From Candidatus Bathyarchaeota archaeon (GTDB lineage: Archaea > Thermoproteota > Bathyarchaeia > Bathyarchaeales > Bathycorpusculaceae): a DNA stretch of 64,000 bases. The translations under genes and the position numbers were made by a program. Positions within the stretch are counted from its first letter, which is position 1; each line of letters opens with the position of its first letter. The stretch is from positions 96,001 to 160,000 of the forward strand of contig CAVYES010000007.1 of the NCBI GenBank assembly GCA_963767735.1, written 5' to 3'. The notes beneath the pieces are model-generated. The model was not told the origin of the DNA, did not search any database, and worked only from the letters and a program-made list of their open reading frames with translations. This document shows, piece after piece, positions 58,277 through 64,000 of this stretch.

Positions 58277-59971
58277 CTATATTTCTGGTGACTTGCCTTT
58301 TAAGAGGAACTGCTTTTCATATATTTCTCTGACTTTTTCAATGGTGTTGGCTTCCTGCGGGGTTTTGTCGTCCCTTATCCGGCTGATTCTTGCAAACCGC
58401 AACGCCATCTGGCTCTTGTACTTGGGGCTCCTCTGAATCTCATTATAAGCTACTTCAACCACGATTTTGGGAATAACTATAACGCGATGCCCTTCCTGCT
58501 CAACCATTGATTGTTTTAACTGCTTGGTCATCTCTATGATTTCGGCATCAGTTAAGCCTTTGAAAGTTTTACCCACATTAAGAAATTCTCCAGTCTTGGG
58601 TTCTCTTGCTCCAAGATAGTAATCGGAAAGCCAACCTTTCCGTCTTCCATAACCGTACTCAGCGGCGGTGATAACGAGGTCTAAGGGTTCGAGGACTGTT
58701 TTGATTTTCAGCCACTTTTTTCCTCTGCGCCCAGGAGTATATGGACTCTCGAGTTTTTTTGCCATTAACCCTTCGTGCCCAGCGGCTAAGGCTTCTTTGA
58801 GAAAACCGTCCGCTTCCTCAATTTTGTCAGTGACGATTTGTTTGGACAAAGGTATTTCGCCAGCGTTCTGTGCCAAAATTTGCCTGCGCTGGAGGTAAGG
58901 ATGAGCGATTAAGCTTTCACCATTAACGTAGAGAACATCAAACAGGTACAGGGTTAAGGGAATTCTCTGAGCCATGCTGGCGACGCCGCGGGTTCGTTTG
59001 AAGCGCCGCATCAAATGTTGAAAGGCAATCGGATAACCCGCATTATCTAGCGCGACCACTTCGCCTTCAACGATAGCTGACTGCGCTTTAATGTTCCGTT
59101 TTACTGCTTCAACAATCTCAGGCAAACTTTCTGTCACGTTTGTTAGTCTTCTGCTGAAAATCTCTACAGTACCGTTTTGCTTGTGAATTTGGACCCTGGC
59201 GCCATCGTACTTGTATTCAAAAGCGGTTTTGCACCTTTGCTCTGTTAATGCTTCGTATACTGTTTGAGCCGTCTGGGCGAGCATAAGTTTTACTGGTCTA
59301 AAAACACTGAAACCTGCTTTCTCCAAACCTTCCACGCCGTATGTTTTCATTGTTGATGATACTTCACCTATGTCGCCAAGAACCATGCTTGCGTGCTGAA
59401 CCTTCTGGACGGGAACGTTGAAAGATCTTGCAACTGCTTGCTCCATTAAGCCTTCCTGTAGTCCCGTGCGCATTTCGCCCGTGAAGATTTTGACCAGGTA
59501 TTTGGCCTCAACCGGAGTTGTTTGGCTTAGCAGAGTAGATATCAAGCGTTCTTTTTTGGTTCGGGAACGTGCACCTGAAGTTTGGGCGATGGCTTCGAGT
59601 GCTCGCCTGACCTCGGTTATCGTTAGTGACCTCTCGGTTAGCTGTGTTTGCTTTTTTGCTTTGGCTTGCTCAAGAACCATTTTAGTGGCTGAGCCGATGT
59701 CGCCTGTGCTTGCCATGGCTTGGCGGAACATGCCCCAGTCAAATTGGCTTACTCGCTCTAAAACGCGGGTTAGGGTTGACCAGCTTACATCAAGCGATTT
59801 TTGGCTATATTTTGGGAATGCTCTGCCAACCATCATGTTTGTGGCGGGTTCAATCTCTTCGGGGCTAAGTGTTTTCAGGTAGTTTGCAGTTAAATCTATG
59901 ATTTCGAGCCGTTTCTTAGTAGCTTCTACTCTTTCAAGCAGTTCAGAGAGGGATTTGAAAGATACAGACAT
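58277..59971 (-). CDS. lig: ATP-dependent DNA ligase
   Basis: EYKYDGAR, EGEVV, FDVLY, EGLMAK, WLKIK, LRFAR..R.DK. Confidence 0.93.
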   Translation of the reverse strand: MSVSFKSLSELLERVEATKKRLEIIDLTANYLKTLSPEEIEPATNMMVGRAFPKYSQKSLDVSWSTLTRVLERVSQFDWGMFRQAMASTGDIGSATKMVLEQAKAKKQTQLTERSLTITEVRRALEAIAQTSGARSRTKKERLISTLLSQTTPVEAKYLVKIFTGEMRTGLQEGLMEQAVARSFNVPVQKVQHASMVLGDIGEVSSTMKTYGVEGLEKAGFSVFRPVKLMLAQTAQTVYEALTEQRCKTAFEYKYDGARVQIHKQNGTVEIFSRRLTNVTESLPEIVEAVKRNIKAQSAIVEGEVVALDNAGYPIAFQHLMRRFKRTRGVASMAQRIPLTLYLFDVLYVNGESLIAHPYLQRRQILAQNAGEIPLSKQIVTDKIEEADGFLKEALAAGHEGLMAKKLESPYTPGRRGKKWLKIKTVLEPLDLVITAAEYGYGRRKGWLSDYYLGAREPKTGEFLNVGKTFKGLTDAEIIEMTKQLKQSMVEQEGHRVIVIPKIVVEVAYNEIQRSPKYKSQMALRFARISRIRDDKTPQEANTIEKVREIYEKQFLLKGKSPEI

Positions 59972-61216: not shown

Positions 61217-61618
61217 TCAAGAAAATACAGAGAACGATGATTCGCCTTCAGGCTCTTTTTGTTTATCGTTGATTTCCTTAATTTTCTTTTCAAGTTCCTC
61301 TACTTCTTTAGTATTACCCAACACTTTTTGGCAGTCCCTTGCCTGCTCAAGTCCACTCAGGCCATATCTGTCAAATGCCTTGCTAAACGCGATATCTGCC
61401 GATTTCATGAAAAGTTCGGTGCCTTTCACGCAGTCCTTGAGGGCAACAGCGGCTTCACCAGCTTTATAATACATTTCTGCTGCACCAAAATAGTTCTGTC
61501 CTTTATAGTAAAGCTCGCCAGTTTTGGCAAACATGTCTTTTGCTTCTTCATATTTGCCGTTTTCCATTAGTGAAATGGCTTGTTTGTGCATTTTTATTGG
61601 GTCTACTTTTTCAGTCAT
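61217..61618 (-). CDS. TPR / alpha-SNAP-like helical repeat protein
   Basis: Repeating A..(F/Y).KA.E helical pattern. Confidence 0.65.
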   Translation of the reverse strand: MTEKVDPIKMHKQAISLMENGKYEEAKDMFAKTGELYYKGQNYFGAAEMYYKAGEAAVALKDCVKGTELFMKSADIAFSKAFDRYGLSGLEQARDCQKVLGNTKEVEELEKKIKEINDKQKEPEGESSFSVFS

Positions 61619-61759
61619 GAGTTGTCACTCTTTGTCTCTATTTTGAGGTGAACTCCCATTTAGATTTTCCTCTCCAAAAACCTCAAAAAAAGAAAGTAGC
61701 CAAACGGTGAATGGCATAACATAAAAGGCTCTTCCAATATGCAGTAAATAGGAATAAAC

Positions 61760-63160
61760 TTGATGCTACGCTGCATTCAATGTATTCGCTGCGGAACAGA
61801 GTTTCCAGTTTACCCACTGCGAAGTAACTGCGAAAAATGCGGCGGAACACTTGAATTCATAGCTGACTTTCCAGAAGCTGCAAAATTAAGCCTTTCTGGT
61901 CCTTTCGGATTTTGGCGGTACAGACTGATGCTTCCTCCCGTTAAGCATATGGTCAGTTTGGGAGAGGGCGGAACACCATTGCATAGGGCTGAAAGGCTTG
62001 CTAAAGCCGTTGGATTGAAAGACCTTTATTTGAAAGATGAAACCCGCAACCCCACAAGCTCCTACCGAGACCGCGCCGCAGCTTTCTTGACGTCAAACGC
62101 GATTGATCAAGGTTATGCCGCCTTAGTATGTGCCAGTAACGGAAACATGGGGGCTTCTTTAGCTGCCTACACCGCAAAAGCAGCGTTGATTTGCCATGTT
62201 GTGGTTCCTAAAGTTGTTGATGTTGGAAAACTGGCGCAGATGATTGCTTACGACGCCGTCATCGAGGAATCAGGCGTCATCGTGGATGACTCAATCCGAA
62301 AAGCAGCTGGCTTAGCCAAGGAAACAGGATGGTACCAAGCCACCGCCGAACTCAATCCGCTAGTTGTTGAAGCCCAAAAAACCATTTCGTATGAAATTTC
62401 TGAACAGTTTGCCGTTCCAGAATGGGTTATTGTTCCAATGGGAAGCGGCGGAACCATCTATTCTCTTTGGAAAGGGTTTAAAGAACTCAAACAGCTGGAA
62501 CTTACCAGTTCGCTGCCCCGGATGGTTGGGGTTCAGACTGAAGGCTGCGCGCCAATAATCAGCAAACTGAAACAAAACGGTTCCCTAAAAGCCTGCAACC
62601 CATCAACGCGAGCATTAGCTATTCTGGTAGGCGAACCACTCCAAAGCGACTTAGCAATTAAAGCCATAAAAGAATCAAACGGACTAGCTTTAACCGTGAC
62701 AGACGCGGAGATTTTTGCTTCGGAGCTTTTGGTCGCCAAACTCGAAGGAGTCTTCGCCGAACCCGCAAGCTCAGCCGCTGTAGCGGCATTACAAAAATTG
62801 AAAGATGATAAAATTTTAGGCGATGGAAGCGTGGTTTGCCTAATTACGGGGAGCGGCTTAAAGGCGACTGATGTTTTGCAAGCATTGACGAAAAAACAGA
62901 AAGCAGCAGGATTAGGGCTTGCAGTGAGTACAAAACAGAAAATTCTCAAAATCCTCAGCGAAAAAGACACGTATGGTTATGATTTGTGGAAGCAGTTGGG
63001 ACAGATCATGACTCGCGCCGCGGTGTATCAGCATCTCAATGAGTTATCGGACAGAGGGTTGGTGGTTGGCTATGAGGAGAGCGGCAAGAAATTTTTCCGA
63101 ATTACTGAGCGTGGAAGGAAGGTTCTGGCAGCTTTTGATGATATACAGTTGCTTTTGTGA
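61760..63160 (+). CDS. Threonine-synthase-fold protein lacking the PLP lysine, fused to a C-terminal PadR-like wHTH
   Basis: Zn ribbon, SLGEGGTPL, NPTSSYRDR (canonical NPTGSFKDR), ASNGN, PMGSGG, EPAS, TGSGLK; tail ILKIL...YGYDLWK....RAAVYQHL.EL...GLV....KFFRITERG. Confidence 0.85.
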   Translation: MMLRCIQCIRCGTEFPVYPLRSNCEKCGGTLEFIADFPEAAKLSLSGPFGFWRYRLMLPPVKHMVSLGEGGTPLHRAERLAKAVGLKDLYLKDETRNPTSSYRDRAAAFLTSNAIDQGYAALVCASNGNMGASLAAYTAKAALICHVVVPKVVDVGKLAQMIAYDAVIEESGVIVDDSIRKAAGLAKETGWYQATAELNPLVVEAQKTISYEISEQFAVPEWVIVPMGSGGTIYSLWKGFKELKQLELTSSLPRMVGVQTEGCAPIISKLKQNGSLKACNPSTRALAILVGEPLQSDLAIKAIKESNGLALTVTDAEIFASELLVAKLEGVFAEPASSAAVAALQKLKDDKILGDGSVVCLITGSGLKATDVLQALTKKQKAAGLGLAVSTKQKILKILSEKDTYGYDLWKQLGQIMTRAAVYQHLNELSDRGLVVGYEESGKKFFRITERGRKVLAAFDDIQLLL

Positions 63161-63183
63161 TTGTTGTTCCGTAACGCTTATTT

Positions 63184-63209
63184 TATAGTATAGCTGCAAC
63201 TATACTATA
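63184..63209. promoter_or_regulatory. 26-bp near-perfect palindrome overlapping the predicted pdxS promoter (candidate operator)
   Basis: tatagtatag-ctgcaa-ctatactata; overlaps TATA-like ttttatag at 63181; ends 14 bp before the pdxS ATG. Confidence 0.7.
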
Positions 63210-63222
63210 GGTGCGGTTTTGA

Positions 63223-64000
63223 ATGAGCGAAACTAAGAGAATAGTTGAGCAAAAAGGAACTGACAGGTTGAAAAGAGGATTTGCCAAAATGGTCAAAGGC
63301 GGCGTAGTAATGGATGTCACTAATGCAGAGCAGGCAAAGATTGCCGAGGCTGCAGGCGCCGTTTCCGTTATGGCACTAGAAGCTGTTCCTGCAGACATAC
63401 GCGCAAGAGGCGGCGTAGCAAGAATGGCTGAACCAAAAAGAGTTAAAGAAATCATTGCCGCAGTAACTGTTCCGGTTATGGCTAAATGCAGAATAGGTCA
63501 TATTGTGGAAGCACAAGTGCTTGAAGCCTTAGGTGCTGACATGGTTGATGAAAGTGAAGTATTAACTCCAGCAGACGAAGACGACCACATCGAAAAAAGA
63601 AAGTTTACTGTTCCTTTTGTATGTGGTGCAAGAAACCTAGGCGAAGCTTTAAGAAGAATAAATGAAGGAGCCGCCATGATAAGGACTAAAGGTGAACCAG
63701 GAACCGGAAACGTCGTTGAAGCGGTAAGACACCTAAAACTCATGAACAGAGAAGTAGCAGCATTAAAACGAATGTCAGACGACCAATTGATAGAAAAAGC
63801 TAAAGAATACTTTGTTCCAGTAGAATTAGTTAAAGAGACAAGAGACCTGGGAAGATTACCTGTCGTGAATTTTGCTGCAGGAGGAATTTCCACACCGTCT
63901 GATGCAGCATTAATGATGCAGTTAGGTGCCGATGGCTTATTTGTTGGTTCAGGAGTATTCAAATCTAAAAACCCCCAAGCTTACGCAAAAGCAATCGTAG
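63223..64000 (+). CDS. pdxS: Pyridoxal 5'-phosphate synthase lyase subunit (runs off window end; absent from ORF track)
   Basis: [72 protein letters not shown]. Confidence 0.95.

Follow-up and report, generated by a model that had tools for sequence, protein, structure and literature searches.

We analyzed a 64,000-nucleotide stretch of DNA from a Candidatus Bathyarchaeota archaeon of the phylum Thermoproteota (GenBank assembly GCA_963767735.1, contig CAVYES010000007.1, positions 96,001–160,000 of the forward strand), referred to here as the window; coordinates without a contig prefix count from its first nucleotide. The source assembly comprises 3.04 Mb in 10 contigs and is 94.9% complete. 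Our subject is a fused gene near the end of the window (61760–63160, forward strand), called the regulator gene after its proposed role, together with a 26-bp palindrome behind it and pdxS, the gene for the lyase subunit of pyridoxal 5′-phosphate (PLP) synthase. The regulator gene encodes 466 residues when read from a TTG codon. Since the open reading frame (ORF) opens with TTG-ATG, translation may in fact begin at the second of these codons (61763). The product combines an N-terminal zinc ribbon, a threonine-synthase-fold (PALP) domain without the Schiff-base lysine and a C-terminal winged helix-turn-helix (wHTH) domain of the PadR type. pdxS lies downstream on the same strand (63223–64000), as the initial annotation of this DNA had noted, across a spacer that we measured as 62 nt. 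The window holds the first 259 of its 302 codons, which match PF01680 with an E-value of 4.6e-103 and score 443 bits against NF003215 (cut-off 395). The gene extends approximately 131 nt beyond the window, its end is overlapped by pdxT, and an AIR-synthase-related gene follows.

The zinc ribbon is formed by Cys8, Cys11, Cys24 and Cys27 (61772–61843, forward strand), each at least 90% conserved in a 70-sequence family alignment (A1), and the canonical threonine synthase (ThrC) of the source genome carries a ribbon of the same kind. The fold-type II PLP-enzyme domain (residues 65–364; 61952–62851, forward strand) matches Pfam PF00291 with an E-value of 1.1e-71 and keeps its PLP-pocket motifs. 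PMGSGG, EPAS and TGSGLK are found at residues 227–232, 334–337 and 363–368, respectively. The wHTH domain (residues 395–457; 62942–63130, forward strand) matches PF03551 with an E-value of 3.9e-11 and 43.2 bits, above the gathering score of 27. It is the sole DNA-binding domain of the protein, in which no GntR match was found in Pfam at E ≤ 0.1. Over its length, the regulator scores 189.8 bits against the threonine synthase model TIGR00260, above the cut-off of 167.1, and 406 bits against NF004170 (cut-off 421; residues 6–459 covered). The initial annotation had described the same three motifs and a PadR/ArsR-like wHTH fused at the C terminus, and is borne out on both counts.

An AlphaFold2 model of the regulator, calculated from a 70-row alignment, has a mean predicted local distance difference test score (pLDDT) of 92.1 and a predicted template-modelling score (pTM) of 0.82. 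The only stretch of low confidence is the linker at residues 379–387, ahead of the wHTH; in the model, a long helix and this linker connect the sensor domain to the wHTH. The best Foldseek matches in the PDB are threonine synthases (6nmx, 2zsj and 2d1f; TM-scores over the target of 0.82–0.85), and a PDB sequence search found no solved structure that includes the wHTH tail. The score of a homodimer model was 0.85, and none of three controls exceeded 0.00. Its runs share at least 46% of their contacts, the partner pLDDT is at least 85, and the interface lies in the enzyme-like domain. Among proteins of known structure, 20 of 30 solved as same-chain pairs reach this mark, as does 1 of 23 solved as single chains; because threonine synthase dimers are among the solved structures, the pass may reflect likeness only. 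PLP was included in the homodimer job, where small molecules carry no score. The model thus suggests that the regulator is likely a dimer, which would fit a two-fold symmetric operator.

The Schiff-base lysine, in the motif S-F-K-D-R, is essential to all fold-type II catalysis. Around this position, the regulator reads ETRNPTSSYRDR in translation, and the CGA codon at 62066–62068 (forward strand) specifies Arg103 in place of the lysine (SYRDR for SFKDR), in agreement with the NPTSSYRDR reading first reported. Arginine occupies the position in all 121 sequences of a set made up of the query and its 120 best matches (at least 74% identical); thus, Arg103 is not a sequencing slip. Contigs from two DNA runs, either of which may be the source sample, also span the codon without difference. 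Sequencing runs sharing at least half of the sampled words of the stretch were not found, the best share being 0.32. Thirty fused ORFs taken from further genomes of the phylum (L004–L033; 32–78% identity) all have arginine, and lysine is present in the single unfused ThrC that a flanking region contained.

The loss of lysine is family-wide and tracks the fusion. Clustering at 50% identity provided 150 representatives for comparison, 75 with the wHTH tail and 75 without a detected tail. In the fused set, 71 of the 75 have a residue other than lysine (Leu 18, Ile 16, Arg 15, Val 5, Thr 5, Met 4, Phe 3, and one each of Ser, Tyr, Ala, Asn and His), two have lysine (P0123 and P0128), and two are fragments without the motif. 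The unfused set has lysine in 66 of 75, arginine in four (three fragments of 131–247 residues and P0129) and valine in one; the remaining four lack the motif as searched. In a FastTree phylogeny of the enzyme-like domain, 59 unfused lysine-bearing proteins form a single clade (support 0.947). The rest of the pocket is well preserved: Asn97-Pro-Thr99, Ser101, Asp104, Arg105, Gly128, Asn129, Gly228, Gly230, Thr363, Gly366, Leu367 and Lys368 are invariant or nearly so in the fused groups with arginine or hydrophobic residues. These are presumably the elements that bind the PLP ring, its O3′ and its phosphate in threonine synthase structures. Compared to the canonical ThrC of the source genome, the regulator has Met130 for Thr, Val202 for Arg and the loop GSGGT for GNAGN, positions at which the unfused set itself varies.

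That canonical enzyme is the second ThrC homologue of the source genome, a protein of 416 residues encoded on contig C5. It contains NPTGSFKDRG and is encoded beside homoserine dehydrogenase and aspartate kinase, and we conclude from this motif and context that it is the real threonine synthase, the separate thrC whose presence the initial annotation had left to be checked. The fused proteins, in turn, are not a rarity. NF004170 (PRK05638), an 'equivalog' model that bears the name threonine synthase, spans 442 positions, wHTH tail included. Its top-scoring genomes (461–703 bits; L004–L008) all have arginine at the lysine position. Thus, the model appears to give the regulator family the name of an enzyme. 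The unusual architecture, initially put forward as that of a candidate new B6 sensor, is real, but it belongs to a large archaeal family that has already been modelled.

The spacer between the regulator gene and pdxS contains the palindrome TATAGTATAGCTG/CAACTATACTATA (63184–63209), a candidate operator. Its two 13-nt arms (63184–63196 and 63197–63209) abut without a spacer and pair at 12 of 13 positions (92%). The centre is 26 nt ahead of the pdxS ATG, and the site ends within 14 nt of it. A TATA-like, A/T-rich element, TTATTTTATAGTA (63176–63188, forward strand), overlaps the left arm and is the putative pdxS promoter; sites of relatives have a similar stretch at their left edge. The initial annotation had described exactly such a 26-bp palindrome with one mismatch over a TATA-like box. 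Nothing else in the 3.04-Mb genome matches the palindrome, even with a tolerance of 6 mismatches over its 26 positions, which argues that it is more than a chance occurrence.

Gene neighbourhoods were compared across 41 loci, comprising the source locus and approximately 17 kb around 40 fused genes of other genomes, with their ORFs clustered. The commonest neighbour, present in 27 of the 41, is a membrane protein of approximately 250 residues, an energy-coupling factor (ECF) S-component of the PdxU/PdxU2 family (PF07155). In loci of the Arg group, its gene comes directly downstream of the regulator; in those of the hydrophobic group, it lies upstream in divergent orientation. All four of the proteins tested matched PF07155 (E-values of 2e-25 to 5e-30), and a PDB sequence search with the archaeal S-component gave a single significant match, chain S of 4hzu (5.9e-8). 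This chain is HmpT/PdxU2, for which pyridoxamine is reported as a substrate in the available text of PMC4860826; the B6 transporters PdxU and PdxU2/HmpT are assigned to COG4720/PF07155 in the accessible part of PMC9997740. By sequence, then, the archaeal S-component is a candidate B6 transporter. One family of the phylum has the regulator gene followed by those for the S-component, a fused EcfA/A′ and a further membrane protein; the last has no Pfam match and is taken here as a putative EcfT. The source locus has the order regulator, pdxS, pdxT and AIR-synthase-related gene, and a second locus (L064 of genome G270) has pdxS and pdxT divergent from a Leu-type regulator of a distant group. In six loci of two families (L038, L043, L050, L052, L053 and L070), the regulator directly follows genes read from their sequence as gatD-gatE (Glu-tRNA amidotransferase), and an S-component does not adjoin it.

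The palindrome belongs to an operator family that is conserved across these relatives, which supports its initial reading as an operator. Aligned palindromes from regulator/S-component spacers of the same class have the consensus AATAGTATAGTT-NN-AACTATACTATT, and the source-genome site fits the family-type form ..TAGTATAGTT-NN-AACTATACTA.. by its matrix score. Within the approximately 17 kb of each same-class Arg-type locus, the best matrix hit precedes the S-component gene in 13 of 14 cases (28–37 bits), at a distance of 11–45 nt (approximately 145 nt in L067); four of these 13 sites (L040, L041, L066 and L067) were outside the matrix training. The fourteenth genome, G045, has a site of 21.4 bits before an unlinked PF07155 gene. 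When the source-genome site is left out of the matrix, 63184–63209 still ranks first in the source genome, with 28.2 bits vs 16.9 for the next hit. A matrix built from the 13 transporter sites of relatives only, with no pdxS site, also places it first (31.6 vs 15.0 bits).

The transporter-only matrix also recovers candidate sites at promoters of unlinked pdxS genes in G148 (33.8 bits), G101 (28.2 bits) and G300 (14.5 bits), and at unlinked S-component genes in G045 and G017 (26.3 bits). Unlinked PF07155 genes of G065 and G057 also have operator-like sites (16.5 and 16.6 bits); like the G017 site, these belong with the two families in which the regulator follows gatD-gatE. In G198, from another family, pdxS is approximately 400 kb from the regulator gene and shares a CTTAAAG..TAAACTTTATAT motif with the spacer between its regulator and transporter. 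Candidate operators precede pdxS in the source genome, G148, G101, G300, G198 and G270.

The arms of the source-genome operator are of the transporter type (TATAGTATAG..), unlike the unlinked pdxS sites of G300, G148 and G101, which share a left arm, TATATTCAAG, that it does not have. The transporter-type arms suggest that pdxS-pdxT replaced a transporter gene behind an existing operator. Such a cassette swap seems likely, given relatives in which the order is regulator, operator, S-component and AIR-synthase-like gene (L045, L067 and L068). The hydrophobic group has a different palindrome (..GCCTATATATAGGC..), located a few nucleotides before the start of the regulator gene itself and after a ATATATAAG box (L054, L055, L057, L058, L060, L062 and L064); in L064, a variant of it lies between the regulator gene and pdxS. 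This arrangement suggests autoregulation together with divergent control of the S-component, or of pdxS-pdxT in L064.

The distribution of pdxS was examined in a 301-genome sample of the phylum, where 55 genomes besides the source have a full-length, tail-covering regulator match among the matches listed. Seven of these 55 carry pdxS (PF01680, E ≤ 1e-30): G101, G148, G198, G241, G270, G274 and G300. Among the other 245 genomes, 133 do. Of ten carriers searched with the source PdxS protein, two matched. In incomplete genomes, absence of pdxS means only that it was not found; with this reading, most regulator carriers appear to be without PLP synthase and to have a B6-type uptake gene beside the regulator. 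The source genome is the reverse case, with pdxS-pdxT behind the operator and no S-component homologue found by tblastn with three queries at E ≤ 1e-3.

Based on these comparisons, we consider that the regulator is probably a one-component transcription factor and not a threonine synthase, and that it acts as a dimer to repress B6 synthesis and uptake in response to PLP. Without a lysine for the Schiff base, PLP or a close phosphorylated B6 vitamer would be held only reversibly, which would suit a sensor of the free cofactor pool. Dimerization through the enzyme-like domain would place a pair of PadR-type winged helices at the palindrome, whose 26 bp would span the region from the TATA-like box to the likely start of the pdxS transcript. 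When B6 is plentiful, the liganded dimer would occupy the operator and block formation of the pre-initiation complex, so that pdxS-pdxT, and probably also the gene after pdxT, would be off. When B6 is scarce, the regulator would leave the DNA. A dimer bound over this site, which extends from the TATA-like stretch to a point within 14 nt of the ATG, would be expected to block initiation, consistent with a PLP-dependent repressor in a negative feedback loop. In most relatives, the same regulator and operator would control the PdxU/PdxU2-type ECF uptake component, whose place behind the operator would be taken by the PLP-synthase genes in the source genome. The initial annotation had proposed a fold-type II domain that has lost catalysis and now senses B6 to control pdxS. 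The comparative tests support this proposal, and from them we infer which ligand is sensed, that the protein binds DNA and that it represses its targets instead of activating them.

The broader interpretation is one towards which we lean, with little more than even confidence. In this interpretation, Archaea would have their first vitamin-B6 regulator, and the family would form a new class of PLP sensors, in which a lysine-less fold reads free PLP reversibly and governs pdxS-pdxT and PdxU-type uptake across Thermoproteota, with implications for the AIR-synthase-related gene and for mis-annotated enzymes.

Several observations weigh against the proposed B6 repressor. pdxS-pdxT adjoin the regulator in 2 of the 41 loci. 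The linkage to pdx genes on which the initial annotation relied is, in this sense, uncommon; the part that stands is the connection to B6, since the usual target is a PdxU/PdxU2-family S-component, a neighbour that strengthens the B6 link rather than weakening it. The S-component assignment has its own difficulties: the annotations of such transporters are described as hard to propagate in the available text of PMC9997740, PF07155 is named after riboflavin transporters in Pfam, and the NCBIfam matches are weak (TIGR04002, 31–43 bits vs a cut-off of 120). In two of the 41 loci (L040 and L048), the regulator has a canonical thrC as its divergent neighbour. P0123 (NPTSSFKDR) and P0128 (NPTNSFKDR) are fused and nevertheless have lysine. 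Both fall within Arg clades of the FastTree phylogeny, and therefore look like Arg-to-Lys reversions; they may also be sequencing variants or bifunctional forms. Among the eight pdxS-bearing genomes with a regulator, two (G241 and G274) have no recognizable family operator before pdxS, and the G300 site, with its 14.5 bits, is weak. The TATA-box assignment, and hence repression, is a reading of the sequence. Contigs from RNA libraries touch parts of the regulator gene and pdxS, and are short, giving neither a start nor an end nor proof of transcription. Finally, the contrast between the 7 of 55 carriers and the 133 of 245 remaining sample genomes with pdxS (same threshold) is descriptive and not a test, since kin genomes are not independent, and the 245 may hide carriers among 605 further regulator matches beyond those listed.

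A rather unlikely alternative keeps the regulon and architecture and replaces free PLP by another effector, such as pyridoxal, pyridoxine 5′-phosphate (PNP), pyridoxamine 5′-phosphate (PMP) or an external aldimine of PLP with an amino acid. In a pocket without lysine, the aldehyde of bound PLP would be free to react with an amino acid, as in the complex of γ-aminobutyric acid with PLP in GabR, and MocR regulators of such a kind are described in the available portions of PMC5320631 and PMC4944035. The substrate-side changes noted above (Thr to Met at 130, Arg to Val at 202 and GNAGN to GSGGT) also indicate that the pocket has been remodelled. However, the regulon contains B6 synthesis and B6-type uptake genes only, with no amino-acid genes, and the conserved glycines of the phosphate loop and Thr363 fit a phosphorylated vitamer.

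The sign of regulation could also be the opposite. Bacterial PdxR is a positive regulator of pdxS-pdxT according to the accessible part of PMC9997740, and the archaeal protein might likewise be an activator that recruits TBP/TFB at low B6 and is released or silenced by PLP. The palindrome arms are themselves TATA-like, such that the location of the real TATA box is uncertain. The position of the sites argues for repression: the operator centre is 26 nt before the pdxS ATG, and the transporter sites are 11–45 nt before their genes, at or after the expected TATA position. Archaeal repressors usually bind at or after this position. We therefore regard an activator as improbable.

We consider it very unlikely that the protein senses threonine or O-phosphohomoserine and regulates threonine biosynthesis, with incidental links to pdxS and the transporter. 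Descent of the sensor domain from threonine synthase and the divergent thrC of L040 and L048 are consistent with such a role, but these are only 2 of 41 loci, in which the high-scoring operator precedes the S-component and not thrC. In addition, thrC of the source genome is on another contig without a site, and the operator recurs at unlinked pdxS genes. Least credible is a transcript hairpin or terminator of the upstream gene, or a merely symmetric A/T-rich promoter: the palindrome starts 24 nt past the regulator stop codon and could fold as RNA, but the same motif precedes unlinked pdxS and S-component genes with different upstream neighbours, is conserved in sequence and not in pairing alone, is unique in the genome and has no Rfam match at E ≤ 1 anywhere in 61500–64000.

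Candidate extensions of the proposed B6 regulon were rejected. In the source genome, the next-best matrix hits, at C7:237398, C4:86231, C2:195012 and C9:28861 score at most 16.9 bits and are within coding frames or weak. In relatives, searching with a short core pattern and allowing one mismatch yielded no excess over a reversed control (5–8 vs 2–7 hits per genome), and six secondary hits score at most 10.6 bits within ORFs.

Three further repeats or junctions were observed near related sequences. In L078 (G241), a perfect 16-bp palindrome, TATTGAACGTTCAATA, lies before pdxS and just after a small winged-helix-like ORF, which may encode a different pdxS regulator in that lineage. In L040 (G101), an inverted repeat, TTCAGTTAA-N7-TTAACTGAA, is located between the divergent canonical thrC and the regulator gene; it has the AGTT/AACT core of the operator with a longer spacer. 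A metagenome contig (run X2) matches the window up to the operator, with a loose end at 63210, and continues with an operator-like half-site and then a different gene start, and it is probably from a relative with the transporter arrangement.

The AIR-synthase-related gene that follows pdxT in the source genome (C7:160824–161828, approximately 64824–65828 in window numbering) contains PF00586 and PF02769. Proteins of this type are HypE/ThiL/SelD-like and below the cut-offs for all three. The gene is also found 3′ of the S-component in eight loci (for example, L067:10774–11838 and L072:6842–7864). It may encode an unrecognized B6 salvage enzyme, such as an ATP-dependent kinase. PF08543 (PdxK/ThiD), the domain of the canonical pyridoxal kinase, was not found in the source genome or in G264, is weak in G288, and is strong only in frames of approximately 460 residues in G013 and G252, a pattern that is too mixed to back or reject a kinase role.

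Upstream of the regulator gene, on the reverse strand, are a helical protein of 133 residues (61217–61618) and a protein of 564 residues read as an ATP-dependent DNA ligase (58277–59971). Both recur upstream of the regulator in relatives (clusters c8 and c14, in five and four loci). We regard this as conserved synteny with no evident functional link.

If the B6 repressor is real, it would be a one-component vitamin sensor of known design logic, built from new parts, in which a cofactor-dependent enzyme has become a cofactor sensor through the loss of a single residue. The source locus, with pdxS-pdxT where relatives have a transporter gene, adds a direct, operator-level link to PLP synthase. 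An archaeal B6 regulator, its operator and a candidate transporter would become available for testing, and B6 auxotrophy and cross-feeding would be predictable from genomes of uncultured Bathyarchaeia and other Thermoproteota, as most carriers appear to be without pdxS. On the broader interpretation, the AIR-synthase-related gene could by extension encode a missing B6 salvage enzyme. The mis-annotation is systematic: the family passes the thrC equivalog cut-off, and an NCBIfam model carrying the name 'threonine synthase' seems to have been made from its members. On the broader interpretation, thousands of 'threonine synthase' annotations would be wrong.

The regulator is similar to threonine synthase (ThrC; TIGR00260, NF004170/PRK05638) in its fold, zinc ribbon and most PLP-pocket motifs. 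It differs by the absence of the Schiff-base lysine, the added wHTH, the lack of a threonine-pathway context and the presence of a true thrC elsewhere. With PadR transcription factors, it shares a PF03551 wHTH above the cut-off and a palindromic candidate operator at the promoter of a neighbour. PadR proteins are typically small and carry their wHTH at the N terminus, with a short helical tail for dimerization, whereas the wHTH of the regulator is C-terminal to a sensor and dimerization domain of 380 residues.

We found no paper on a threonine-synthase-fold regulator or an archaeal B6 regulator in a search that left supplements and most subscription journals aside; the mentions of 'threonine synthase' in PMC11237513 and PMC10783522 concern other things. 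A 2023 survey of PLP synthesis and salvage (PMC9997740) lists, in its available text, only bacterial regulators of the PdxR type, and describes B6 transporters as poorly known. PdxR, MocR and GabR of Bacteria are one-component regulators that join a PLP-enzyme-derived domain to a winged helix and act on pdxS-pdxT or B6-related genes through inverted or direct repeats, according to the accessible parts of PMC5320631 and PMC4944035. In MocR proteins, the wHTH is N-terminal and of the GntR type, and the effector domain resembles aminotransferases of fold-type I, in contrast to the C-terminal PadR wHTH and the fold-type II domain without a Schiff-base lysine described here. As the two are unrelated in sequence and belong to different domains of life, the resemblance to PdxR is convergent, as had been proposed at the outset; neither a GntR nor a fold-type I domain is present in the regulator.

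Enzyme-domain designs of a similar kind also exist in Archaea, as in ThiR, which combines a ThiN-like and a DNA-binding domain. In RbkR, a riboflavin kinase carrying a wHTH, a vitamin-pathway enzyme domain placed on a DNA-binding domain controls the synthesis and transport genes of that vitamin (PMC5397151, available text, where the terms 'pyridox', 'vitamin B6' and 'PLP' are absent). The sensors of RbkR and ThiR stem from enzymes of the very pathways that they regulate, whereas that of the regulator stems from a PLP-using enzyme of threonine synthesis. With a sensor derived from an unrelated pathway, the cofactor, and not the substrate, is the presumed ligand.

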